A DNA stretch of 64,000 bases from an uncultured Spirochaetia bacterium. Lineage in GTDB: Bacteria; Oederibacteriota; PGYV01; CAYTNY01. Below, in pieces: positions 177 through 63,435 of this stretch. The notes beneath the pieces are model-generated. The model did not search any database and was not told the DNA's origin. It saw nothing but the letters and a program-made list of their open reading frames with translations. Where the stretch lies: assembly GCA_964439215.1 (NCBI GenBank), contig CAYTNY010000001.1:33-64032 (forward strand), given 5' to 3'. The translations under genes were made by a program, and so were the position numbers. Position 1 is the first letter of the stretch. The number at the start of each line of letters is the position of its first letter.

Positions 177-2036
177 TTACCTTCCGATATTCACGAGCGT
201 GTCAAGCATTGTTGCCGATGTTGTTACGATTCTCGCGTTGGACTCAAAGCCCCTCTGCGCGATAATCATATTTGTCAGCTCAACCGAAAGATCAACATTT
301 GATCCTTCAAGCGATCCGCCCTCGGTTTTACCCGCGCCGGCTTGACCTGCTTCATTCATTCTTGCTGTTCCTGAGTTTGCGGAAATTGAATACATATTAC
401 CGCCTGCTTTTGAAAGGCCCTGCGGATTGCTGAATGTCGCAACAGCAAGCTTTGCTATTGTAAGTGTTTTCTCGTTTGAAAACTCCCCTACAATACCGCC
501 TGTTGAGTCAACGTTCATTCCGATCATGTCTCCGGCTCTCCATCCGTCGGTTTCCTTTGCGTATGCGGTATTATCAGGTATATATGTTGATACACCGCCT
601 ACAATCTGATACTCGCCCGAAACATCGCCCGTAAGCCCGTCTCTCAAGCCCGGCTGTGCAGGGTTAATCTCGGTATTTCCGGCAGGGTCATTAACCGTCA
701 CAACGCCTGTTCCCGGACCGGTTGTCGTGTCCCACGAGTTCGGAGTTCCAAAGTGAAGCTGGAAATCAAGATCCAATGCGCCGTCAGACATTATGCCCTG
801 GGCTGCACCACCCGCCGCAGCCGGTATCTGAGTGAATCTAATTTCCGGGCCGTATATTGTCTGCCCATCAACTTCACTCTCCAACGGCTGTCTATGGAAT
901 CCAGCACCGCCTGTACCTGTATCCCATCCGCCGCCTGAAGAAGCAAGCGAGCCGTCCTGGTTAAACCAGATAGGCGACATAACACTTTGCTCATCCGCAC
1001 CGCCGCCATTTGCCATATCAATATTTGTACCGCCCACACAGTTGAAATAATCAGGTTCACCCGTGAGAGTCTCAGAACCTCCAACAAAAGTGGTATCAAA
1101 AGCATACCAGTCCCAAACAGGCCTGAAATCATTTCCGCCCGTAGGATCAGTTCCGTGCTGGAAGAACCATACAGTAAGGTCTCTCGGGTTGCCGAGCGAA
1201 TCATATACCGTAAATGTTGCGGTATGATCAGGCACGACTTTTGAGGAGTTCTCATCAGCAGGATCTGTATGGAAATAATAGTTTGTTCCTCCGTCACCAT
1301 CCTGAACATCCTCAAGGTTAACCGAAGCAGCGCCGCCAAGCTGTGAAGGCGCGCTGTTCGGCGAAAAGTTTGACGGAAGCTCGGTAGGGGCTGCCGCAAC
1401 GTCGTTTGTCGCATATTGGTTCATAGGCGTATTGGAGTCAAGGTTGCCCGAGAACTTAACAAACCTTGTTGCCTGTGCGGACATTCTCAGGTCACTGGGT
1501 ATGTTGACATTGCCTATCTGTGATACATCATCTGTATTAATCGTATATGTTGCTGAATCTATCTGGAAACCCGGGTTTCTTGCGGGGTCATCAAGAAATG
1601 TTCTTTCAAGATTTCCCATCCAGCCCTGAACAATACCGCCGTCCGCTGTCGTAACATTACCAACATTGTCCTGAAGAAAATTTCCGGCCCTCGTGTACAT
1701 TGTTCTTGAGCCTGACGCGACAGTAAAGAATCCTTCTCCAGTTATCGCAACATCAAGCGGATTTCCTGTTGTCTGAATCGCTCCCTGGGTCATAATCGTG
1801 TCAATTGACCCGAGCGCGGCTCCGAGACCCTGCTGCAGCGGATTCTTGCCGCCGATGTTTCCCGCGGTGCTCGCGGCTGACGCCGAGCCGAGCGACTGTG
1901 AAACCTGTTCCTTGAATGTTACCCTCTGTGACTTGTAAGCCACGGTGTTTACGTTAGAAATGTTGTTTCCGATTGTGTTCATCCAGGTTGTGTGGTTTTT
2001 CAGACCTGAAATTGATGAAAACATTGATCCCATCAT
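177..2036 (-). CDS. flgE: Flagellar hook protein FlgE, long form (619 aa)
   Basis: N-terminal Flg_bb_rod motif (SGLKNHTTWMNTIGNNISNVNTVAYK) and C-terminal Flg_bbr_C motif (NVDLSVELTNMIIAQRGFESNARIV). Lies immediately downstream of flgD. AGGAGG RBS 10 nt before the ATG. Confidence 0.85.
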   Translation of the reverse strand: MMGSMFSSISGLKNHTTWMNTIGNNISNVNTVAYKSQRVTFKEQVSQSLGSASAASTAGNIGGKNPLQQGLGAALGSIDTIMTQGAIQTTGNPLDVAITGEGFFTVASGSRTMYTRAGNFLQDNVGNVTTADGGIVQGWMGNLERTFLDDPARNPGFQIDSATYTINTDDVSQIGNVNIPSDLRMSAQATRFVKFSGNLDSNTPMNQYATNDVAAAPTELPSNFSPNSAPSQLGGAASVNLEDVQDGDGGTNYYFHTDPADENSSKVVPDHTATFTVYDSLGNPRDLTVWFFQHGTDPTGGNDFRPVWDWYAFDTTFVGGSETLTGEPDYFNCVGGTNIDMANGGGADEQSVMSPIWFNQDGSLASSGGGWDTGTGGAGFHRQPLESEVDGQTIYGPEIRFTQIPAAAGGAAQGIMSDGALDLDFQLHFGTPNSWDTTTGPGTGVVTVNDPAGNTEINPAQPGLRDGLTGDVSGEYQIVGGVSTYIPDNTAYAKETDGWRAGDMIGMNVDSTGGIVGEFSNEKTLTIAKLAVATFSNPQGLSKAGGNMYSISANSGTARMNEAGQAGAGKTEGGSLEGSNVDLSVELTNMIIAQRGFESNARIVTTSATMLDTLVNIGR

Positions 2037-2139
2037 AGTTGGATCGCCTCCTGAGTTTTAATTAAACGCATATTCGATGCGTTTTTTGGAGGCCCCCGCT
2101 TTACTCAAAAGCAAAGCAGTCCGGCCTCAAATCTGGTTC

Positions 2140-2538
2140 TCAAGCAATTACCGCAGAATCTATATTGGTAAATACATTTTCCTGCATACCCGCTCTGTCA
2201 ACCGCGGTAATTACCGTACTGTTCTTTACGCTTACAACAAGCGAAAAGTTTTCAAAGACCATAAGCGTCTCATTTGCCCCTTTTTCTTTTGCTTTTCCGA
2301 GGGCATTCTGAAGCCTGCTCATTACTTCAGGATTCATATCAATATTACGCGAATGAATCCTCTTTTCAGCGTGAGAGGAAAATTTAATATCCTGCTCTTT
2401 ACCCGCTACCTGCTGCTGATCCAATACCTGCTTAAACGATGGAGTACCCCGGTCTGTCTTCTGCAGATTCCGGCTGCGCTGCTGTGCTTCCTGCAGCTGC
2501 GACAGCTTCTGAAACTGTGAATTAATATTGTTTACCAA
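2140..2538 (-). CDS. Small flagellar operon protein between flgD and flgE (TIGR02530-like, SSHAEKRIHSRNI motif)
   Basis: 132 aa, placed between flgD and flgE as in Firmicutes-type fla operons. Contains an HAxxRxxxRxI motif that I recall from the flgD-flgE intergenic 'flagellar operon protein' family. Confidence 0.45.
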   Translation of the reverse strand: MVNNINSQFQKLSQLQEAQQRSRNLQKTDRGTPSFKQVLDQQQVAGKEQDIKFSSHAEKRIHSRNIDMNPEVMSRLQNALGKAKEKGANETLMVFENFSLVVSVKNSTVITAVDRAGMQENVFTNIDSAVIA

Positions 2539-2552
2539 CTGGTATCACCACC

Positions 2553-2996
2553 TTACGCTTTTATTTCTGTAACTGAAGAAAGTCCGAATTCCTGTCCGTT
2601 CACTACTATCTTCGGATCTCCATCAGCAAATCTTACCGCACTTACCTGTCCTTCAACATTTCCCGCTTCCGTGCTTATGGCAACATTCTTTCCGATAAGC
2701 GACGCTGCCTGAGTCGTGTTCTGCATCATCATAAGCCCGATAATATTGTCATTAAGCGAGGTTATGCTGTCCGCAAACGTCTGATTCAGGTTTGTCATCT
2801 GTTCAAGCGAAGAAAACTGCGCCATATCAGCGACAAAAGACTCGTCCTCCATAGGCTTTAACGGGTCCTGATACTTGAGCTTCGTAATAAGCATTTCCAG
2901 AAAATCCATCTTGCCCAGCGCTGAATCAGGATTATCCACCATTGATGTTGCTGTTTCGCTCAAACTGTTTGTAGATCCTACTCCGGATACATCCAT
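2553..2996 (-). CDS. flgD: Flagellar hook assembly/capping protein FlgD
   Basis: Conserved FlgD N-terminal region LGKMDFLEMLITKLKYQDPLKPMEDESFVADMAQFSSLEQ, followed by a beta-rich C-terminus. Position fliK-flgD-flgE. Confidence 0.85.
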   Translation of the reverse strand: MDVSGVGSTNSLSETATSMVDNPDSALGKMDFLEMLITKLKYQDPLKPMEDESFVADMAQFSSLEQMTNLNQTFADSITSLNDNIIGLMMMQNTTQAASLIGKNVAISTEAGNVEGQVSAVRFADGDPKIVVNGQEFGLSSVTEIKA

Positions 2997-3015
2997 TTAT
3001 TATTCACCTCCTTTC

Positions 3016-5364
3016 TTAAGCAAAATAGTTTAGGTAGCCGGTAAACGGCGCTGAAACCGCTTCGGTACCATCAGCCTCCGGCAGCCCGGATAAAGCTGTA
3101 TCGTTCAATGCGCCGCCTTCCCATTGCGCAAATTCATCAAAAGAACCTTCAAAATCTCCGCGTCCATCGCTGTTAAGCATTGATATTTCAATATTTTCAA
3201 TATCCACTCCGGCATTTCCGAGGGAAGCTCTGAGTTCCGCCGTATTTACCCTTAATATTTCCCTTGCTTCAGCACCCGCAACCTGTATCTTTGCGTTTAC
3301 TTTTTTATCAGCGGTCTCAAGTTTTATTATGACAATTCCCAGATTTTCGGGCCTTAAGAACATTTTTATTTCAGTTGTTTTCGGCGACAGCGCGTTTCCC
3401 GCCACTGCTTCAGAAACCTGCTTTAAAATAATATCGGTTTTTGCCGCCTTTGCAAATGAAGCCAGATTTTCAAAAACAGCGTTATTTGCCGCGGTTTTTA
3501 AATGATTTTCATTTTTTATCTCAAATCCCATATTTTTAACCAGCCATTCCATATCTTTTACAAGCGGATTCTTTTCAGCGTTTGCTTCCCCGCTTTTAGG
3601 CGCGGGATTCACACTGCGCTCCGGCCGGGCCTCTTTAGGCGTTTCAGCGTTTTTAACATCCGCCGCGTTTGCTTTAAGTTTTAAGTTTTCCGTGTTTTCA
3701 GGCGCAGCCGCCGGAACAGGATTTTCTTTTGCGGTTATTCCTGACATTGTTTCGGGCGAAGAAGTCTGCGCGGCGGCGCGGGCCCCTTCACGGGCCGCTG
3801 TCTCCGCGGGTTTTGTGTTTATAAGACCATCCGCGGTTTTTGTCCGCGCGGCATTCTCTGATGCCGGTGCTGCTTCAGCTTTTACCGCCGGCGCAGGTTC
3901 GGGCAAAACCGTGTTTTTCATTGGTTCCTGCGGTGCTGTTTCCGCGTTTTTTATTATTTCCATTCTGCCGTTAAGCTGCTTTAAAAGCGACGCAATCTTC
4001 ATAAAAATATCTCCGTCCTGCTTTAAAGCCTGCTGTGCAGCCGGAGCATTGTCCCCCGCATTGCCGCCTTTATCCGTATTTACGCTTATTCCTCTGATAT
4101 TTCCAGAAACAGCCTCAGGCAGGGGATTATTTGATGTATCCGCGGAAAAAGAGCCGCTTAAACTGCCTGCCCCCGCGGATGATGAAAGAACACCATTAAA
4201 AATCCCGGCCAGTCCGTTTATTTTTGAAGCTGTTTCGGCTGCCTGCTGTTCAACAGCGCCGGTATTTATTAAAATATTTTTATTTCCTGAAATTTCAGGA
4301 GTGTTTTCAGAAGCAGTTTTAGGCGGAACCCCCGTAACCTGTGCTTCCACTGACACAACGGAATTCTGCGCTCTGTTTTCAACCGCGGCAAGCCTGACTG
4401 CCGAGAAAGTATTTTCTCCGGAACTCACCGAAGGCATAAGCATTGAAACCAGTTTATTAACAGATTCCACAGCTTCTTTGACCTGTGTATTTATTTCTTT
4501 GATTTCAGACGAACTCACTGAAGGGCCTTTCTCTGATACTGCTTTTTTCAAAACTGCCGCGGCTTCCATTATATCCCTGTTCAGCTGTGCGGCAAATTCT
4601 TTTACGGTTTCAGCAGGAACTTCTGTTTTTACAAAAGCCGCGCTTTTTGCCGTATCAGCGGATATTTCAATCCGTCCGGCGCCGGCGCCGGCCGGTTCTT
4701 TTCCTGCCTGTGTTTTTACATCAGGGACCGCCGGCATTTCCGCACGCACGGGAGCGTTTTGCGCCTCCCGCAAAACTTTCTGCTCAGCGGCCTGCGGCAC
4801 AGAACCCGTATTAACAATTTCTGTATTATTCCTGTTTGACGCACCCGCGTCTTTTGAATCTGTCTGCAAATCTTTGTTATTGCCGGAAATATCTTTATTG
4901 TTTTGAACATCAAAAGCAGCATCTTTTAAATCCGCCCGAAGCGCTTTTCCCAAAGCAGTATCTGCCGCCAGCTGCACAGCGGCCGCTTTTATGCTCTCAT
5001 AAAGAATATTTTTTTCATCAGCGCTCAGGCCCTGAGCAAATGCTTTCACAACAGGATCCTGCGCTATTTCAGCTTTGCCTGAAACCGCAATGCTGCCGGC
5101 TTTGTCCATAATGAATAACGCGGATACAGCTTTATAAAGAGCGGAGTGAAGTTTTTGATTTGCGATAAGATCTTCGGCAAGGCCGGCTTTCTGAATATCA
5201 TTCCTGCTGTTTTCCTGCTGCAGCATAATATCGGACATAATGCCTTTAAATGCATTAATACTATTATTGGAATTGTTTTCATTGATAACATCTATCGGAA
5301 TACCCTGCTTTGCGGACAGACTTTGTACGTTGAGCGCTGTCAACGACAAATTTAAATTGACCAC
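3016..5364 (-). CDS. fliK: Flagellar hook-length control protein FliK, unusually long (782 aa), Ala/Glu/Pro-rich
   Basis: C-terminal Flg_hook domain (MFLRPENLGIVIIKLETADKKVNAKIQVAGAEAREILRVNTAELRASLGNAGVDIENIEI). Low-complexity central region. Position between fliJ and flgD. Start appears to be GTG with an AGGAGG RBS 7 nt upstream. Confidence 0.75.
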   Translation of the reverse strand: MVNLNLSLTALNVQSLSAKQGIPIDVINENNSNNSINAFKGIMSDIMLQQENSRNDIQKAGLAEDLIANQKLHSALYKAVSALFIMDKAGSIAVSGKAEIAQDPVVKAFAQGLSADEKNILYESIKAAAVQLAADTALGKALRADLKDAAFDVQNNKDISGNNKDLQTDSKDAGASNRNNTEIVNTGSVPQAAEQKVLREAQNAPVRAEMPAVPDVKTQAGKEPAGAGAGRIEISADTAKSAAFVKTEVPAETVKEFAAQLNRDIMEAAAVLKKAVSEKGPSVSSSEIKEINTQVKEAVESVNKLVSMLMPSVSSGENTFSAVRLAAVENRAQNSVVSVEAQVTGVPPKTASENTPEISGNKNILINTGAVEQQAAETASKINGLAGIFNGVLSSSAGAGSLSGSFSADTSNNPLPEAVSGNIRGISVNTDKGGNAGDNAPAAQQALKQDGDIFMKIASLLKQLNGRMEIIKNAETAPQEPMKNTVLPEPAPAVKAEAAPASENAARTKTADGLINTKPAETAAREGARAAAQTSSPETMSGITAKENPVPAAAPENTENLKLKANAADVKNAETPKEARPERSVNPAPKSGEANAEKNPLVKDMEWLVKNMGFEIKNENHLKTAANNAVFENLASFAKAAKTDIILKQVSEAVAGNALSPKTTEIKMFLRPENLGIVIIKLETADKKVNAKIQVAGAEAREILRVNTAELRASLGNAGVDIENIEISMLNSDGRGDFEGSFDEFAQWEGGALNDTALSGLPEADGTEAVSAPFTGYLNYFA

Positions 5365-12967: not shown

Positions 12968-14198
12968 CGTGCTCCTCTTCGTTTAATTTTTCTTTCAGCC
13001 GCACAAACGAAGCCATCAGGTTTTCCGTCATTTCCCTGGCTTCATAATTCACTTTTGACAGTTCCCCGGAAATGCTGTTTATAGCATCCAGATTTTTAAT
13101 CTGCGCAACGGACTTTGCGGCATTATCGGATATTATTTTAAACATAAGTTCGCTGTCAGTATTATGTTCGTCGGTAAAATCTTTTATTCCTGTAATTGTT
13201 TTTTCCACTTTCTTTACGTCTTTTACTATTTCAATAAAAATATCCCCTGTCTGGTAAAATGTCCTTATATTTTCCTCTATTTTTTCCGCTGTCTTGATTA
13301 TATCTATCACCTCTGTTGTTCTTTCCTGTATTTCTTTTAAAATAACAGCGATTTCCTCCGCCGACTGGTTTGACGCCCCGGAAAGCGTTTTTATCTCCCC
13401 TGCCACAACAGAAAAACTTTTTCCCGCCTCTCCGGCCCGAGCCGCTTCTATGCCGGCGTTAAGCGCAAGCATATTTGTTTTTTTCGCCATATCTGCGATC
13501 TTAACCACAAATATTTTTATTCTTTTTGACATTTCAACAAGTTCATTTATAAGCGACGTGGAATGTATTATGTTTTCCTTCAGCTCCGTTATATTCTGTA
13601 TTTCCCTCCCTATCGCTTTAACTCCGCCGGAAGCGAGTTTTGACTGCTGCCTGGCGTCCTTTAATACATTATATGTGGCGGTGTCAATTCCTTTTGACGT
13701 ATTTTTTATTTCCATTCCTATTGTTTTTATTTTATCAAAGATACCGTCAACTCCGCCGAGATACTCTTTCAAAAGCCGGGCTTTATCGGACATTGCGCTG
13801 TTTTCGTACGCGGTCTTTTCTATCTGGTCAAGCATTTCACGCAGTTTCTCCGTATAACCGTCAATATCTCCGGCCTGCAGCCTGACGCCTCTCTGCAGTT
13901 TTCTCTTTTCAAGAATAACATCATCCACAAGCATATGAATTTCAGGATCTTTTTCAATGAATTCACCCGGGGAATCATCTTCTTTTTTTATCATTTCCCG
14001 CGCCGCCCTGACCGAATCCCTGTGAAATTTCACAAGAAAAAGCGCGGTTATAAGAAATATAACAGCCGCGTGTATATAAAGGAACCAGAAAAGAAACACC
14101 ACATCCGTATCATAACGGAAAAGAAAAATAAGCGCAAAAAATGATGATGCCGCAAAAATAACGGCCCCGCACAGAACAAAGACAGACTGAAGCTTCAT
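12957..14198 (-). CDS. Methyl-accepting chemotaxis protein, short form (2 N-terminal TM helices, no periplasmic sensor)
   Basis: Highly conserved MCP signalling tip KTNMLALNAGIEAARAGEAGKSFSVVAGEIKTLS. Start overlaps the murA stop by 4 nt (ATGA). Confidence 0.85.
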   Translation of the reverse strand: MKLQSVFVLCGAVIFAASSFFALIFLFRYDTDVVFLFWFLYIHAAVIFLITALFLVKFHRDSVRAAREMIKKEDDSPGEFIEKDPEIHMLVDDVILEKRKLQRGVRLQAGDIDGYTEKLREMLDQIEKTAYENSAMSDKARLLKEYLGGVDGIFDKIKTIGMEIKNTSKGIDTATYNVLKDARQQSKLASGGVKAIGREIQNITELKENIIHSTSLINELVEMSKRIKIFVVKIADMAKKTNMLALNAGIEAARAGEAGKSFSVVAGEIKTLSGASNQSAEEIAVILKEIQERTTEVIDIIKTAEKIEENIRTFYQTGDIFIEIVKDVKKVEKTITGIKDFTDEHNTDSELMFKIISDNAAKSVAQIKNLDAINSISGELSKVNYEAREMTENLMASFVRLKEKLNEEEHDGK

Positions 14199-15472
14199 AC
14201 CGAAGCCTCCTTTTCAATATGTATATCAGCTCCCAGCTTTCTGAGTTTTTTATCAAGATTCTCATAACCTCTTTCAAGGTGATATATTCTCCTGACAACC
14301 GTTGTTCCCGAAGCCGCAAGCCCGGCGATTATCAGGGCAGCTGAGGCCCGCAGGTCGGAAGCCATCACATCCGCCCCGCTGAAAGACGGCACCCCTGTAA
14401 CTACCGCGGTATTTTCATCTATTTTTATATCAGCTCCCATACGCACCAGCTCCATTACGTGCATAAACCTGTTTTCCCATATATTTTCCTTTATTATACT
14501 GTCCCCTTTTGCCAGGGACATCAGAGCCATCCACTGCGCCTGTATATCCGTGGGAAATCCGGGATACGGCTCTGTCAGGACATCAACACTTTTCAGGCGT
14601 TTTCCTGACGCGGAAATCTCCACAAAGTTTTTCCCGGTTTTAAATTTCACGCCTGCTTCTTTTAATTTCTCAAGAAACATCGCAAGATGCCCGGGGTTTA
14701 TTTTTTTTACTCTTATTGTTCCTCTTGTAATAATACCCGCCGCAATCAGGGTTGCAGCCTCAATCCTGTCGGGAATAACACTGTATCCGTTTACACCTTT
14801 TAATTTCTTCACCCCTTTTATCACAAGACAATCCGTGCCTTCTCCGCTTATCTTTGCCCCCATACACCTTAAATATTTAACCGTATCTATTATTTCAGGT
14901 TCTTTAGAAGCGTTTTCAAGTATTGTTTCGCCTTCCGCAAGCACCGCGGCAAGCATTATATTCACGGTTGCCCCCAGGCTGACTTTGTCAAAAACGATCC
15001 TTGCCCCCTTCAGTCTTTTTGCACTGGCCTTTACATACCCGTGCTTCATTTCTATTTTCGCCCCCAGTTTTCTGAGGCCTTTTATATGAAGATCAATGGG
15101 TCTCGCGCCTATGGCGCAGCCTCCGGGCAGCGATACTTTTGCCTGCTTATATTTGGCGACAAGCGGCCCGAGCACATAAATGGAAGCGCGCATTGTTTTG
15201 ACAAGTTCATAAGGGGCCTTGTAGTTTTTAATTCTTTTGGGATTTATTATTAATGTATGATTTTCATAACCCACTGACGCACCCAGTATTTTAAGCAGAT
15301 GCCCCATTGTTTTTACATCCGCAAGCAGCGGAACATTATGAATCACACTCGGGGACCCGGCCAGTATTGAAGCCGCCATAACAGGAAGTGCGGCGTTTTT
15401 TGAGCCTGAAACATTCACGGACCCGTTTAATTTTTTCCCGCCTTTTATAATCATTTTTTTCAGTGTAATCAT
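14195..15472 (-). CDS. murA: UDP-N-acetylglucosamine 1-carboxyvinyltransferase MurA
   Basis: 425 aa EPSP-synthase-fold protein. N-terminus KLNGSVNVSGSKNAALPVMAASILA is typical of MurA. Full length. Confidence 0.9.
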   Translation of the reverse strand: MITLKKMIIKGGKKLNGSVNVSGSKNAALPVMAASILAGSPSVIHNVPLLADVKTMGHLLKILGASVGYENHTLIINPKRIKNYKAPYELVKTMRASIYVLGPLVAKYKQAKVSLPGGCAIGARPIDLHIKGLRKLGAKIEMKHGYVKASAKRLKGARIVFDKVSLGATVNIMLAAVLAEGETILENASKEPEIIDTVKYLRCMGAKISGEGTDCLVIKGVKKLKGVNGYSVIPDRIEAATLIAAGIITRGTIRVKKINPGHLAMFLEKLKEAGVKFKTGKNFVEISASGKRLKSVDVLTEPYPGFPTDIQAQWMALMSLAKGDSIIKENIWENRFMHVMELVRMGADIKIDENTAVVTGVPSFSGADVMASDLRASAALIIAGLAASGTTVVRRIYHLERGYENLDKKLRKLGADIHIEKEASV

Positions 15473-15570
15473 TTCAGCGCAGACATCTCCATAAATATTA
15501 TATTTTATTTATTATAACTTTTTTATAAAGTTCAGTAAAGGAGTTTGTGGGAGCAAACGGGAAACATAAT

Positions 15571-15810
15571 TTTTTATTTTTGATTTTTAATTTTTGATTT
15601 AAAACCAAAAACAAAACCATTGCGTGTGCGGTGCGGCGGGGTCTTTTTCGCAGGGAACACGCCCTGTCGTGTTCCGGCCTTTTAATTTTAAAACCCGGAC
15701 AAGCACAGGGGCTTGTCCCTACGAAATAAAAAATCAAAAATAAAAATGTATTTCGTCTTCATCTTTTAAGAAGTTAAATCAAAAATCACAAATAAAAAAT
15801 CAAAAATATC
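15571..15810. repeat. MITE/REP-like composite element: two GC-rich hairpin modules bounded by AT-rich inverted repeats
   Basis: Hairpin A is gggaacacgccctgtcgtgttcc at 15653-15675. Hairpin B is ggacaagcacaggggcttgtcc at 15697-15718. A is flanked by ttttcgcagg and B by cctacgaaa, which are near reverse complements, so A and B are inverted diverged copies. Left flank atttttgatttttaatttttgattt (15576-15600) is mirrored by the right flank aaatcaaaaat...aaaaaatcaaaaatatc (15728-15810). A related copy occurs at 24665-24810. Confidence 0.6.
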
Positions 15811-15817
15811 TTTTATC

Positions 15818-17836
15818 TCACTTATACACCGTACTTTTTATTATTATTTCAACTCTCCGGTTTTTTGCGCGGTTTTCGGATGTGCTGTTGGCCGCTACAG
15901 GATCTGTTTCTCCCTTTCCTGACACCCTTATTCTGCTTTCGTCAATACCCTGCAGATTTACCATAAAGAATTTAACGGCGCGGGCCCTTGCGCCCGACAG
16001 CTTTGTTCTTGTTCCGTATTCGCCCGGATCTTCCCTATTGTCCGTATATCCCGTTACCTTTATATCCGAATCCGGGAAGCTGCCAAGCACATCTTTTATT
16101 TCTTTCAATTTATTATACGCGGATATTTTCACGTTTGCCCTGCCCTGCTCAAATATCGCGTCAGAAGCAAATGTCAGTTTTATTTCTTTTAAAAGAATAA
16201 CCGCGGACTTAACAGGAGCCGCGCCCTTGTTCCCGGGATTGTCATGCGCCGTTAAAGAATAATAATATATTTCTCCTGTTTTCACATATCCGCCGTCATT
16301 TCCTCTGCCGTCCCACACAAGCTTTTCAGGAGGCGCTCCCGCGCCGGATGCTGAAAAAAACAATTCTTTATCATAATCCCAGACCGCCAGCTGCCAGTTC
16401 CTTATGCCGTTCCTGTCAAGGGCCCTCATTCTGAAAACCGCGGGTATTAAAAGAGCCTCATCTTCGCCCGGGCGCAGAAGTTTAGGCTCGGATAAAACAG
16501 AAACACGGGGCGGGGTATTGTCTATCTCCACTTTCACTGTATTTGACTCTGATATTGCCCTTCCGTAATCCACTTTAAGACGGGCGCTGTAAACTCCGTC
16601 AGGCAGAATCCGGCCGTCTTTATCTCTGCCGTCCCATATATATTCAAACCAATCCGGCGAAGACGCCTCAATAACAGCCGCGGGTTTATTTTCATTTTTT
16701 CCAAACACCTCCAGACTCATTTTTTTTATTTTCTCTTTTGAACCCGCATCCGCTTTAAACCGGGCAGTCCCGCTGCGGCTGCCGCCCCGCGAGGAAATAA
16801 CCGGCGGATAAACCGAAAGCTCCGACGGCGGCGCGCCCCAGCTGTAAGCCGCGGACATCCTGTGCGTCCCTCCGAGCTCTCCGTAATGAATAAAAGCATA
16901 ATCAACATCAAACCCTCCGAGTTTTATACCCAGTCCGGCTGTCAGGTGATTGAACCCTCCCGCAGCAAACCCTGTCCTGAACACCGCAATATCATTTATC
17001 GTGTATTCCGCTCCTCCTGAAAAAATAAAGTCATAATCAACGTGAAGATCCATCTGCACCGACAAAAGAAGCGGATATCCGGCTGCCTCAAAAACATCAG
17101 AGACACCCATTGACAGTATCTTGGGCGGTTCAAATGACATATTATTCAGTTTCACTTCGGTTCCTATATTTGATATCGCAACACCAAAACCTATAAGATG
17201 ATGATCATCAAACATCAGCATTTTATACAAGAGCCCCATATCCGCGGATAAATTATAACCCGTATAATCCGCCATACTCTCGGAATTAAAGTTTATCTTA
17301 AATCCCGTGGAAATATATTCATTAAGATATATGCCGTATGCGGCGGAGGCCGAATAATTATAAGGAAAATAAACCCCGTCCGAAAATTCATTCCAGTCTA
17401 CTCCTGAATTCAGATATACAGGATCATATGACGGCAGATCATAATTCCGCGAAAGCCCTCCCGCGCGCAGCATTGAAAAAGAAAAACCCATTTTTGTATT
17501 TTCCATAAAAGGAGAAGGCATTACAAAAGAAATATGCTCCATCCCGATGTCCTCAAACCACATTATATGAGATGCCTGAATTTCATAGGCCCTTACATAG
17601 GAAATACCCGCAGGATTATAATACATGCCGTATGTGCCTTCCGATACAGCCGTATATGCCCCACCCATACCGGCTGCCCCCGCCATAGGGGATATTTTCA
17701 TGAAATTATTTGAAGTGGTGCCCGTAAGCCGGCTGTCAGGCAAAACATTACGCGAAAAAAACACAACAGCCAGAAAAAGCACGCTCCAAAAAACAAGCAC
17801 TGTTCTCATCCGCATTGCCGCCGGTTTCACATTCAT
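15818..17836 (-). CDS. Outer-membrane protein with an N-terminal PorV/UPF0164-like barrel, two FlgD_Ig-like domains and a C-terminal OmpA peptidoglycan-binding domain
   Basis: Signal peptide. N-terminal motif AGAAGMGGAYTAVSEGTYGMYYNPAGISYV matches the PorV-like paralog at 25472 (GAAAGGMGNAY...NPAGLS). Two WDGRDKDGRILPDGVYSARL / WDGRGNDGGYVKTGEIYYY motifs of FlgD_Ig type. C-terminal OmpA_C motif VTGYTDNREDPGEYGTRTKLSGARARAV...NRRVEI. Confidence 0.65.
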   Translation of the reverse strand: MNVKPAAMRMRTVLVFWSVLFLAVVFFSRNVLPDSRLTGTTSNNFMKISPMAGAAGMGGAYTAVSEGTYGMYYNPAGISYVRAYEIQASHIMWFEDIGMEHISFVMPSPFMENTKMGFSFSMLRAGGLSRNYDLPSYDPVYLNSGVDWNEFSDGVYFPYNYSASAAYGIYLNEYISTGFKINFNSESMADYTGYNLSADMGLLYKMLMFDDHHLIGFGVAISNIGTEVKLNNMSFEPPKILSMGVSDVFEAAGYPLLLSVQMDLHVDYDFIFSGGAEYTINDIAVFRTGFAAGGFNHLTAGLGIKLGGFDVDYAFIHYGELGGTHRMSAAYSWGAPPSELSVYPPVISSRGGSRSGTARFKADAGSKEKIKKMSLEVFGKNENKPAAVIEASSPDWFEYIWDGRDKDGRILPDGVYSARLKVDYGRAISESNTVKVEIDNTPPRVSVLSEPKLLRPGEDEALLIPAVFRMRALDRNGIRNWQLAVWDYDKELFFSASGAGAPPEKLVWDGRGNDGGYVKTGEIYYYSLTAHDNPGNKGAAPVKSAVILLKEIKLTFASDAIFEQGRANVKISAYNKLKEIKDVLGSFPDSDIKVTGYTDNREDPGEYGTRTKLSGARARAVKFFMVNLQGIDESRIRVSGKGETDPVAANSTSENRAKNRRVEIIIKSTVYK

Positions 17837-17894: not shown

Positions 17895-18000
17895 AAGGGA
17901 ATAGAAACCTGAGTTTTGAGTTTTGAGTTTTGGGAAATAATAGTTCAAAGTTCAAAGATAAGGCAGTTCAAAGTTCAAAAGAACAAAATATAAGCTTTAA
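17895..18000. repeat. Short tandem repeat array in the upstream region of the PorV-OmpA gene
   Basis: Plus strand shows (gagttt)x3, then agttcaaagttcaaag twice separated by 9 bp, with an in-register spacing of 23 bp. On the minus strand (gene sense) this is TTTGAACTTTGAACT x2 followed by (aaaactc)x3, just upstream of a TATAAT-like -10 near 17880. Confidence 0.6.
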
Positions 18001-18214
18001 GTTTGGAATTTCGGAAAGAACAGTTTCAAGTTCCGAGTGTGAAGGGCTGGCGTTTGGTTTGCGGGCCCGGCGTTAAAAACTAAATCCCCCCTGCCCCCCT
18101 TTTTCAAAAGGGGGTAACAACGAAATAATTAAACCAACAGTATAGGTTTTACCAACCATACAATCATCTGAGCATCCGAGCCTCAGGTTTCCATTCCGCA
18201 TTTAAAATGGTTTT

Positions 18215-18245
18215 CATTGAAAATTGATAATTGACAATTGGCAAT
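18215..18245. repeat. Tandem aattgN hexamer repeats (aattga taattga caattgg caatt)
   Basis: Seen directly in the dus-to-ompA-like intergenic region. Confidence 0.5.
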
Positions 18246-18253
18246 TTTTCTCC

Positions 18254-23448: not shown

Positions 23449-24591
23449 TTAAGTTTTAAACTGTTTTCCCCTCACAAACACTTTCTTTAAATTCAGTTTT
23501 TCGTCCAGCAGTATCATATCCGCGGGCAGGCTTTTTTTTATCCTTCCTGCCTTTATTCCTGACACGGCGGCAGGCGTGGATGTGGCCATCGCAAGAGCGT
23601 CCTGCAGCGGGATGCCGCACCATTCACGCATATTTTTTACGGCCTGCAGCAGCGATGCGCCGCCGCCCATCAGTCGTCCGTCATCAAGATAATACGCGCC
23701 GTTTTTCCCGCGGTATGCTCTAACAGCCGCATTTATCCGTTTTTTACCGCCGCCCTCCTTCAGGCCCGGGCTGTCTGTAATTAAAACAATGCGGCCCCGG
23801 CCGAAAAGTTTATAAATAATCCTTAAAACAGACCTGTGTATATGCACCCCGTCCGCTATAACTTCAACAAATGTGTTTTTTTCTTCAAAAAACGCGGCAG
23901 CCGGCCCCGGCTCCCTGTGATGAAGCCCTTTCATTGCGTTAAAAAGATGAGCCGCGCATGATATTCCTTTTTTTATGCCGCGAAGTGTTTCCTTATAGTC
24001 CGCGGATGAATGACCCATACTCATAATAATTCCCTGTTCTTTTAAAAAAACCGCTGCCTTTGAAAACACCTTATGTTCCGGCGCGATACAGCATATTTTA
24101 ATTTTATTATTTTTATTTGCGGCAAATTTCAGAAATTCATCAGCCCTTTCCCTTTCCGAAACAATAAATTCCGCGGGTATCATGCCTCTTTTCTCAGAAC
24201 TGATAAACGGCCCTTCCAGATATACCCCCGCAATAAAAGCACCGGTCCCGGTCTCCGCGTATTGTGATATCTTTTCAATTATATGCGCGGTTTCCGGAGA
24301 ATAAAAACAGGCAGCCAGGACCGCAGTAACCCCGGCGCGCGCATTTTCCATGCTTATTTTCCGTATATCTTTTTTGCTTTTTATATCCAGCGTATGCACC
24401 CCGCCCGCGCCATGTGTATGAATATCAATAAGCCCCGGACTCAGTATCATCCCCTCCGCATCAATTATTCCGGTCTTTATGCGCGGAGGCGCTCCTTTAT
24501 ATATTCCGGTTATAATCCCGCGTTTTGCTTCAACAGTATCTTCCCGCAGAAATTTCACACCATCAAATACACGCGCGTTCTTTATGATCAT
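23449..24591 (-). CDS. nagA: N-acetylglucosamine-6-phosphate deacetylase NagA
   Basis: Amidohydrolase fold with PGLIDIHTHGAGG near the N-terminus. 380 aa. Confidence 0.8.
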   Translation of the reverse strand: MIIKNARVFDGVKFLREDTVEAKRGIITGIYKGAPPRIKTGIIDAEGMILSPGLIDIHTHGAGGVHTLDIKSKKDIRKISMENARAGVTAVLAACFYSPETAHIIEKISQYAETGTGAFIAGVYLEGPFISSEKRGMIPAEFIVSERERADEFLKFAANKNNKIKICCIAPEHKVFSKAAVFLKEQGIIMSMGHSSADYKETLRGIKKGISCAAHLFNAMKGLHHREPGPAAAFFEEKNTFVEVIADGVHIHRSVLRIIYKLFGRGRIVLITDSPGLKEGGGKKRINAAVRAYRGKNGAYYLDDGRLMGGGASLLQAVKNMREWCGIPLQDALAMATSTPAAVSGIKAGRIKKSLPADMILLDEKLNLKKVFVRGKQFKT

Positions 24592-24664
24592 ATTAATCTC
24601 CGTTTTGTTTTTTTTTATAATAATTCATTCCCGCGGGGAAAGCAATACAGAATACCGCCGGAAA

Positions 24665-24810
24665 GCCGGAACACGGCAGCTTGGTTAAAAATCAAAAGCC
24701 GGAACACGGCAGGGCGTGTTCCCTACGAAAAAAAGAAAAAGAAAAAACTTGCGGGCCTGCGCTTTGTTTTTTTTGTTTTCGCAGGAACAATCCCCTGTGC
24801 TTGTCCGGGT
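24665..24810. repeat. Second copy of the REP-like hairpin element (modules in inverted orientation relative to 15644-15725)
   Basis: ggaacacggcagggcgtgttcc+ctacgaaa at 24701-24730, a half copy gccggaacacggcagc at 24665-24680, and ttttcgcaggaacaatcccctgtgcttgtccgggttttt at 24775-24812. The reverse complement aligns almost base-for-base with 15644-15725 (22-nt identical aaaacccggacaagcacagggg). Confidence 0.6.
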
Positions 24811-24935
24811 TTTTATTCCCAAAACTCAAAAGATCCATATTTTAAAATATTTATCCTCCATAATCCCCTTGACTTATATAATATATATATTAAAATCATA
24901 ACTGTAACAGAAGACATTTTAGGAGGTTTATTTCT

Positions 24936-25460
24936 ATGAAAATATTTAAACTTTGTTTTATTGGTTTTATATTTGTTTTTGCGGCTTCTACGGTTTTCGC
25001 GACAGAAACAGTAACGCAGACAACAACAGAAACAACAACACAGACCGTTACGCCGACAACAACGCAGACAGCCACACAGACAGTCACGGAAACAGCTACG
25101 CCTGACTGGACCCCTACCGGCACATTTACAATAACACCTACCGCCACAATAACACCGACTTTCACATCAACACCCACGCCGCAGCCTAAGTTTTTCGCTT
25201 ACCCCAACCCCGCATATACCAATGAAATAACAATTGCGTATCCTCTGGATGACGCCAAAACTCCGCTGCGGGCAACTATCATAATAAACGCGGTAAACGG
25301 CGAGGAAGCAGGAAGAATATACGATGATACGCCCAACGGATATACCCGTTTTGATATAACGGCTCTCGCAAGAGGAGTTTATTTTTACAGGCTTATAATA
25401 AAATACACGGACAATTCCGAAACTGTTCATAAATATAAAAAATTCTCAGTGGTTAAATAG
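24936..25460 (+). CDS. Secreted Thr-rich protein with a T9SS-type C-terminal sorting domain (Por_Secre_tail-like)
   Basis: Signal peptide MKIFKLCFIGFIFVFAASTVFA. About 60-aa T/Q/P-rich repeat linker (TETVTQTTTETTTQTVTPTTTQ...). C-terminal ~80 aa carry hallmarks of TIGR04183 CTDs (AYPNPAYTNEITIAY ... GVYFYRLIIKY ... KFSVVK). TAGGAGG RBS. Confidence 0.6.
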   Translation: MKIFKLCFIGFIFVFAASTVFATETVTQTTTETTTQTVTPTTTQTATQTVTETATPDWTPTGTFTITPTATITPTFTSTPTPQPKFFAYPNPAYTNEITIAYPLDDAKTPLRATIIINAVNGEEAGRIYDDTPNGYTRFDITALARGVYFYRLIIKYTDNSETVHKYKKFSVVK

Positions 25461-62758: not shown

Positions 62759-62787
62759 ACAATACTATATCACCGGGAAAAGGTCAA
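62759..62787 (-). promoter_or_regulatory. Candidate pyr operon promoter (TTGACC-17-TATTGT)
   Basis: Minus-strand -35 TTGACC (plus 62782-62787), a 17-nt spacer, and -10 TATTGT (plus 62759-62764), upstream of the PyrR-box leader. Confidence 0.35.
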
Positions 62788-62807
62788 GTTTTTTTTATTC
62801 CAACGCC

Positions 62808-62835
62808 CCCGCAAAATAGAAATGTCCGGTTTCAA
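62808..62835. repeat. Direct repeat copy 1 (cgcaaaatagaaatgtccggtttcaaaa...) immediately 3' of hicA
   Basis: Shares an 18-nt identical core cgcaaaatagaaatgtcc and ~25/28 identity with 63376-63404. Followed by a GC-rich segment. Confidence 0.6.
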
Positions 62836-62867
62836 AAATACAGCACGCCGGGACCCGATGCTTTGTT

Positions 62868-63326: not shown

Positions 63327-63355
63327 ATTATACTACTGTATTCTGCCCTTTTCAA
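63327..63355 (-). promoter_or_regulatory. Consensus-like sigma70 promoter for hicBA (TTGAAA-17-TATAAT)
   Basis: Minus-strand -35 TTGAAA (plus 63350-63355), a 17-nt spacer, and -10 TATAAT (plus 63327-63332), ~35 nt upstream of the hicB RBS. Confidence 0.55.
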
Positions 63356-63375
63356 CTATTGCTTTTTTCAGTGCC

Positions 63376-63404
63376 GCCGCAAAATAGAAATGTCCTGTTT
63401 TCCA
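63376..63404. repeat. Direct repeat copy 2 (cgcaaaatagaaatgtcctgttttccaaa...) upstream of the hicBA promoter and 3' of the lipoprotein gene
   Basis: See copy 1. Followed by the GC-rich stretch cgcagcggtccggcgcggggg. Confidence 0.6.
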
Positions 63405-63435
63405 AACGCAGCGGTCCGGCGCGGGGGTCTTCGCT

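Follow-up and report, generated by a model that had tools for sequence, protein, structure and literature searches.

Published descriptions present REP elements as specific to a species, and REPIN/RAYT systems as lineage-specific and passed on vertically. The members of the GTAG-tagged REP super-family (Di Nocera et al. 2013, PMC3733652) are extragenic palindromes of 20-40 bp, located mostly downstream of genes, which combine a stem of 6-9 bp with an unpaired GTAG/GYAG end; their sub-families differ by complementary stem changes, and they form inverted dimers 20-100 bp apart with the GTAG ends lying either outside ('HH') or inside ('TT'). TnpA_REP proteins of subclass 2.4 display a unique trait, i.e. 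in-frame REP insertions between the HUH and Tyr motifs, and the REPs of this subclass have the form GTAG+GGAC...GTCC, with GTAGGGACAGACTTTATGTCTGTCC and GTAGGGACGCACTGCGTGCGTCC as examples (Quentin et al. 2018, PMC6006769). In the case of REPs that are perfect palindromes, the RAYT studied reads the loop and the stem shape and requires GTAG for cutting, the stem sequence being of little weight and GCAG being barely cleaved (PMC8266576).

Our analysis assigns, with a probability of roughly 0.77, the repeat units found in the window (the whole 64,000-nt stretch of DNA analysed here) to this GTAG-tagged class of REP elements, that is, to a known kind rather than to a new element type or a MITE. 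Two intergenic loci, 15650-15722 (locus 1) and 24665-24806 (locus 2), together hold four full copies of a 26-nt unit and one half copy. In this unit a G[T/C]AG foot, which is unpaired, is followed by an 8-bp GC-rich stem and a conserved asymmetric 6-nt loop, CCCTG[T/C]; the units in the window add to this a T-rich leader and a GG[C/G]TTTT tail, the latter being present on every unit. A sequence-only reading had already described palindromic intergenic repeats in both orientations at these two loci, and the four units bear this out, but the consensus string offered with them has no match even when three mismatches are allowed. The corrected unit reads TTTCG-[C/T]-AG + GGA(ACACG/CAAGC) + CCCTG[T/C] + complementary arm + GG[C/G]TTTT, and the corrected search pattern derived from the window copies, GYAGGGAMMASSCCCTGYSSTKKTCC, retrieves three of them as such and the fourth with 2 mismatches, with no matches in shuffled sequence. 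Two subtypes can be told apart by their stems, GGAACACG in A and GGACAAGC in B, each locus carrying one of each:

15650-15675, plus strand: REP unit A1, GCAG head, stem GGAACACG/CGTGTTCC, loop CCCTGT, pattern match with 0 mismatches (extended unit 15644-15691, including the TTTTTCG leader and the GGCCTTTTAATTTTAA tail; model R2 32.7 bits, E 1e-5; DNA hairpin -8.5 kcal/mol)
15697-15722, minus strand: REP unit B1, GTAG head, stem GGACAAGC/GCTTGTCC, loop CCCTGT, pattern match (extended unit 15690-15740; model R2 44.3 bits, E 2e-8; DNA hairpin -7.9 kcal/mol, z -3.2)
24701-24726, minus strand: REP unit A2, GTAG head, stem as in A1, loop CCCTGC, pattern match (extended unit 24685-24732, tail GGCTTTTGATTTTTAA; model R2 31.7 bits, E 2e-5; DNA hairpin -7.9 kcal/mol)
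24781-24806, plus strand: REP unit B2, GCAG head, decayed 5' arm GAACAATC against GCTTGTCC, pattern match with 2 mismatches (extended unit 24763-24813; model R2 28.0 bits, E 1e-4; no hairpin fold on its own, -2.9 kcal/mol, z 0.1)
24665-24679, minus strand: truncated A-type unit, 3' arm plus GGC tail CTGCCGTGTTCCGGC

Four hallmarks of REPs, i.e. a short stem-loop palindrome, a G[T/C]AG foot, an extragenic site and inverted dimers, are found in the window units. The heads agree in four of four cases with the GYAG rule of PMC3733652 and in two of four with the stricter GT[AG]G rule of PMC6006769. The perfect 8-bp stem with its 6-nt loop folds in A1, B1 and A2 (-7.9 to -8.5 kcal/mol as DNA), the stem of B2 being decayed. 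At locus 1 the units A1 and B1 form an inverted pair with the GTAG ends outside ('HH' dimer) and 21 nt between the cores, and at locus 2 A2 and B2 form an inverted pair with these ends inside ('TT' dimer) and 54 nt between the cores. A single long hairpin is also open to A1 and B1 together (-20 kcal/mol as DNA, z -4.0), albeit a mismatched one, since the two subtypes have different stems. No inverted repeats in the window are longer than the two formed by A1 with A2 and by B1 with B2, tails included (15644-15691 versus 24685-24732, 48 nt, 90%; 15690-15740 versus 24763-24813, 51 nt, 84%). Direct reading also confirmed two details of the sequence-only account, namely the identical 22-nt block shared by B1 and B2 (15690-15711 versus 24792-24813) and the truncated half copy at locus 2, whose 15 nt are identical to 24698-24712.

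Both loci are extragenic, lying in gaps between genes with Pfam support:

14195-15472, minus strand: aroA, whose start bounds locus 1
15818-17836, minus strand: OmpA-domain gene (672 aa), whose stop bounds locus 1
23449-24591, minus strand: amidohydrolase gene, bounding locus 2
24936-25460, plus strand: small gene with a secretion sorting-tail domain, bounding locus 2

The locus 1 pair follows the OmpA-like gene at a distance of 96-170 nt and precedes a promoter-like site of aroA (15539-15511) revealed by a promoter scan. The PCACPGF peptides that open reading frames yield when they run through the repeats, at 15498-15737 on the minus strand and 24283-24939 on the plus strand, had been dismissed in the sequence-only reading as artefacts of the repeat, and such they are: neither frame has a Pfam match, and the second runs antisense to part of the amidohydrolase gene. 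The REP assignment removes two false gene calls and accounts for two oversized intergenic regions. Other features of the surrounding DNA deserve mention in their own right. The motif TATT(T)CCCAAAACTCAAAA occurs at 24814-24832 on the plus strand and at about 17935-17905 on the minus strand, each time roughly 70-120 nt ahead of a start codon, that of the sorting-tail gene in the first case and that of the OmpA-like gene in the second, and it may represent a common regulatory site, both genes being outer-membrane/secretion genes. A 68-nt direct repeat of 74% identity (62784-62851 versus 63352-63419) is located in a 764-nt gap close to the right-hand end, in a part of the window devoid of long ORFs. 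Some 0.4-1.1 kb past the left end (L125 12479-13172) there is a DUF559 (Vsr-like endonuclease) gene followed by an ORF that encodes low-complexity 'GRGxG' peptides and a stretch resembling RHS/YD repeats (..DHLGSTTYLTNETGDVVEQTKYTPW..); the two may form a degraded toxin cassette.

The REP family of the window is a low-copy and partly decayed one within the 72.6 kb of the source genome examined, i.e. the window plus 8.6 kb of contig JBKHBI010000001.1 (GCA_046542475.1). The four full copies and the half copy are confined in this sequence to the two loci, as compared with the more than 100 copies per genome that are typical of the REP class; the covariance model run with filters off found no window copies beyond the four, and the additional 8.6 kb contain none. 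The broken stem of B2, the GCAG heads of A1 and B2 and the truncated half unit make the window units look like ageing copies. Since GCAG is barely cut by the RAYT studied, it is suggested that A1 and B2 would be poor substrates. A Logan contig of the same strain terminates inside unit B1, which may be a hint of repetition, strain variation being an equally possible cause. A search of Rfam 15 at the gathering score returned a tRNA-Leu as the sole match in the window, with the best scores at both loci amounting to 14-21 bits against cut-offs of 55-144.

The claim of a new family made in the sequence-only reading was not sustained, as the units fit the GTAG-tagged class in its subclass 2.4 form and have relatives in many other genomes. 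In a species-representative genome collection, the window-derived pattern had more than 114 matching stretches, distributed over at least 46 species-level genomes and at least 8 named major taxa, including Nitrospirota, Latescibacterota, Poribacteria, Nitrospinota, Zixibacteria, Planctomycetota, Clostridia and a gammaproteobacterium; retrieval by a pattern from the window copies inflates the apparent similarity of these external loci in head and loop. The external units occur mostly as inverted pairs, with partner stems that fall outside the search pattern (GGACAGGC, GGGACGGC and GGGCAGGC). Comparison of 58 distinct cores showed the GTAGG head and the CCCYGT loop to be invariant or nearly so and six of the eight stem pairs to change on both sides. 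In these cores 94.6% of the cells are paired, a percentage partly built in by the choice of cores at >=6/8 pairs, versus 74% in shuffles; the fairer measures are the controls with the partner slid (32-47%) and the double changes (92 cells versus 30 in shuffles). This conservation, with head and loop fixed and stems variable, is the pattern of enzyme recognition reported in PMC8266576. The covariance model R2, built without the window copies, singled out the four units of the window and no others (E 2e-8 to 1e-4), the next match having an E of 2.9. The exact stem variants of the window were not seen in any other genome or metagenome searched; a metagenome scan for the window-specific unit with its T-tail gave 0 matches, and one for GGAACA-type stems gave 3 related loci only. 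Viral contigs yielded 0 matches to the unit, hence no sign of phage carriage. No protein was common to all the family loci, the largest cross-locus clusters inspected consisting of ABC-transporter ATPases and repeat-derived ORFs.

A Y1 transposase gene is present in 5 of 114 8-kb loci, and each of the five has units either upstream of this gene or within it, some also having units downstream. Chance would place a usually single-copy gene in about 0.2 of 114 loci, a rough estimate that assumes genomes of ~4 Mb. The five RAYT-like Y1 genes are:

L068 6274-6855, minus strand: RAYT-like Y1 gene with clusters of REP pairs upstream
L022 7076-7636, plus strand: RAYT-like Y1 gene
L115 381-1061, plus strand: RAYT-like Y1 gene with clusters of REP pairs upstream
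L031 about 2908-3396, minus strand: RAYT-like Y1 gene
L072 about 1643-2154, minus strand: RAYT-like Y1 gene

These genes harbour an in-frame REP pair located between the HUH and Tyr motifs (e.g. ..IVGDGPRAVPNE..NGQPRGVVPT..), a shared trait which suggests that the neighbouring RAYTs may be affiliated to subclass 2.4. The one Y1 protein that was scored reached 34 bits with Pfam Y1_Tnp (cut-off 23) and an E of 4e-16 with the NCBIfam model of the REP-associated tyrosine transposase, below the strict cut-off of that model. A weak Y1-like match was seen in L030 only, and no RAYT gene was found in the examined 72.6 kb (window and L125), the Goldbacteria loci or the AT-rich loci. By analogy with published work on the class, the hairpin would form on single-stranded DNA and a RAYT (TnpA_REP), a single-copy Y1 HUH enzyme, would recognise its loop and stem shape and cleave it via the GTAG; the gene would lie elsewhere in the source genome and its product would copy or maintain the units in trans.

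The more surprising result lies outside the window and concerns one REP variant that is identical across many phyla. The 26-mer GTAGGGACAACCCCCTGTGGTTGTCC is, among the matches listed, base-for-base identical in 43 species-level genomes from 7 named major taxa (Nitrospirota, Latescibacterota, Poribacteria, Nitrospinota, Zixibacteria, Planctomycetota and Gammaproteobacteria) and from unclassified 'bacterium' MAGs. It is usually paired with a partner of different stem at loci within the series L002-L115, for example:

L022 7382-7407: copy of the 26-mer
L068 7056-7081: copy of the 26-mer
L115 81-106: copy of the 26-mer

Going by isolate-name conventions, many of these genomes may be sponge or coral symbiont MAGs. 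A literature search with the exact REP strings found no paper. REPs being held to be species-specific and REPIN/RAYT systems vertical, an invariant REP in many phyla would suggest either repeated horizontal spread of the whole REPtron within a shared habitat or an unusually strict lock between enzyme and substrate. It is tempting to speculate, at less than even odds, that a REP/RAYT system has crossed phylum boundaries and that the units of the window are its diverged, AT-adapted cousins. Should the cross-phylum identity reflect transfer, it would put to the test the notion of REP/RAYT as strictly vertical passengers. As a separate observation, contig OZ251456.1 (loci L013, L016, L026, L054, L061 and L113), from a 3.1-Mb genome, contains several other GTAG-headed hairpin families with CGCG, TATA, TACA and other loops; this genome appears to be extremely REP-rich.

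Among the alternatives to a REP assignment, the one that survives best, and yet is improbable, is a local duplication or gene conversion between the two gaps, 9 kb apart, the units then not being mobile repeats in the source genome. It would account for the finding of units at no more than two loci in the 72.6 kb, with A and B represented once at either, and for the similarity of A to A and B to B running past the hairpin into the AT-rich tails. A further point in its favour comes from the nearest relatives by the OmpA-like protein, which belong to Candidatus Goldiibacteriota (49% protein identity, conserved gene order). Two of these Goldbacteria relatives likewise have lineage-specific repeats common to the same two syntenic gaps, those preceding the amidohydrolase gene and aroA:

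L120 3290-3640 and 12154-12553: shared gap repeats
L117 1857-2059 and 12259-12310: shared gap repeats

These comprise a GTAG-type hairpin (GGTAGACGCGGGTCTTYAGCCCGCGGYAG) different from that of the window, arrays of 8-nt period and, at L120 12275-12546, a MITE-like unit whose inverted ends measure 32 nt; both intergenic gaps look like repeat sinks across the clade. Two intergenic regions of L120 (1358-1690 and 11973-12142) additionally harbour tandem arrays with periods of 55 nt and 49 nt and the common core ATTAAGCTATAGGCA.ATAAGCATAAGCG. However, locus 1 reads A-forward, B-reverse on the plus strand and locus 2 A-reverse, B-forward, and a single duplication or a single inversion is insufficient because each unit is flipped in place with the A-then-B order retained. 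The loci have only the units in common, the sequence between and around these being unrelated, and the unit family is dispersed over at least 46 unrelated genomes. For the same reasons a segmental duplication carrying unique flanks, the explanation that the sequence-only reading had set against its own, is rejected. A CRISPR remnant is likewise rejected since the units are inverted pairs with irregular spacing. In the orthologous-region comparison proposed in that reading, a second assembly of the same species (L116, GCA_048624355.1) proved identical throughout the locus 1 intergenic region save for one 52-nt insertion, and the window REP family is absent from the syntenic sites of the Goldbacteria relatives, where the intergenic regions are not alignable and other repeats are found.

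Marginally less probable again is that the hairpins are functional in the first place, as terminators, RNA-stabilising stem-loops or operator palindromes, and resemble one another through function and not through copying. The GG[C/G]TTTT tail on every unit, the location of locus 1 just 3' of the OmpA-like gene and a related single unit on an AT-rich metagenome contig, placed at an apparent ORF end and followed by TTTTTT, would all agree with such a role, as would the fact that one unit, A2 (24701-24722, minus strand), passes a terminator-like scan. On the other hand, A2 is the sole unit to do so and has no upstream gene on its strand; it sits in a divergent promoter region, and locus 2 has nothing to terminate because its flanking genes are divergent. 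At locus 1 the terminator consensus scan scored no site; the sequence after B1 there, GGGUUUUAAAA, has only 4 U. The unpaired GTAG and the asymmetric loop stay conserved from phylum to phylum with covarying stems, a terminator needs neither of these features, and covarying stems speak against a double-stranded operator. The proposal of the sequence-only reading that one hairpin doubles as terminator of the OmpA gene is thus weak, the role of the locus 1 hairpin being plausible but the scan lending it no site. As a secondary role of the REP pair, locus 1 could be transcribed into the 3' UTR of the OmpA-like gene, where hairpins of such a kind can protect or end transcripts, and a 3'-end role in the OmpA-like transcript is possible.

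The third alternative, a 240-bp MITE in which the AT-rich arms are the terminal inverted repeats of a non-autonomous transposon carrying both hairpins, corresponds to the MITE-like architecture perceived in the sequence-only reading and is very improbable. The inverted AT-rich repeats on which it was built are real (15569-15602 versus 15774-15807, 34 nt, 88%), the whole 258-nt locus 1 region folds strongly as one long hairpin (z -4.9), and in a Goldbacteria relative the site syntenic to locus 2 presents a GCAG-headed hairpin between inverted short-period repeats. The arms are nonetheless made up of heptamer tandem arrays:

15569-15600, minus strand: heptamer array AAAAATN, 4.6 copies (TRF period 7, motif matches), forming the left AT-rich 'arm', ~30 nt upstream of the aroA promoter-like site
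15724-15746, plus strand: heptamer array, 3.3 copies, abutting the B1 head and constituting the T-rich 5' leader of B1 on the minus strand
15776-15807, plus strand: heptamer array, 4.6 copies, forming the right AT-rich 'arm' as part of a ~52-nt repeat unit
Window 15741/15742 versus L116 1911-1962: strain difference, a 52-nt tandem unit consisting of a heptamer block + aacttcttaaaagatgaa..

The insertion in L116 is a diverged tandem copy of the arm unit, present once in the window and twice in L116, and since this 52-nt unit differs between two strains, everything else being identical, the right arm is a variable-number repeat. With up to one mismatch, AAATCAAAAAT has 18 matches in the window, 10 of them within 240 bp at locus 1, as compared with ~9 expected window-wide. 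Three more heptamer arrays (17910-17932, 17942-17979 and 18216-18246; units TGAGTTT, AGTTCAA and ATTGACA) are located upstream of the OmpA-like gene with no REP nearby, and arrays of at least 3 copies occur between genes of the window only in the two gaps flanking the OmpA-like gene. A G/C hairpin, cccccttttgaaaaagggggg, accompanies the arrays at 17910-18246. AT-rich inverted flanks are an automatic result of pairing such REP units in inverted orientation, since each bears a T-rich leader; they lie outside the pair at locus 1 and inside it at locus 2. No direct repeat of 4 nt or more, as expected of a target-site duplication, was seen at the arm ends (ggaaacata| ... |atcttttat), the 72.6 kb contain no second copy of the 240-bp composite, and locus 2 has no arms. 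A MITE is therefore rejected; the AT-rich arms are separate heptamer microsatellites and not transposon ends, a caution against taking arms of this sort for the latter. Heptamer STRR repeats, which are tandem 7-nt units in intergenic regions of cyanobacteria, are likewise arranged as the arms and the 17910-18246 arrays are, but their unit sequences differ and the lineage is unrelated, so that there is resemblance only.

Finally, remnant IS200/IS605-type ends, i.e. subterminal left and right hairpins persisting after loss of the transposase gene, are just as improbable as a MITE: they have hairpins of the same size with a 5' guide tetranucleotide (PMC6006769), but such ends share their orientation on one strand whereas the window units are inverted pairs with 21-54 nt between partners, the members of the family in other genomes are grouped, in the manner of REP clusters, into tandem series of pairs, and the scored Y1 protein associated with them reaches 59 bits with the RAYT model against 26 bits with the IS200 model.

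The assignment to GTAG-tagged REPs is best appreciated by setting the window units beside the systems that they resemble. With the GTAG-tagged super-family of PMC3733652 they share the palindrome with its unpaired GTAG/GYAG end, the stem range, sub-families set apart by complementary changes in the stem, the dimers and the extragenic placement, differing in a 6-nt loop with a conserved CCCYGT of its own; this string does not occur in the supplements of that paper, a comparison made without its Figure 1 list of 24 families. REPs of subclass 2.4 (PMC6006769) have the same form, with GTAG + GGAC....GTCC, a perfect 8-bp stem and a GC-rich stem bottom, but their loops differ, no entry in the table of that work having a CCCTGTG or CCCCGTG loop. 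Both the Pseudomonas REPIN/RAYT systems and the E. coli BIMEs have as their unit an inverted REP pair which can fold into a long hairpin. In the BIMEs the partners are REPs of different subtypes (Y and Z), as A and B are in the window. The long hairpin of the A1/B1 pair is at most a partial counterpart, being imperfect since the A and B stems differ. Starting from the window units, the analysis arrived at a REP family, invariant in head and loop, which spans many phyla and lies beside RAYT genes carrying the repeat in frame, and, in contrast to REPIN systems, whose descent is described as vertical and lineage-specific, one variant of this family is identical across phyla.
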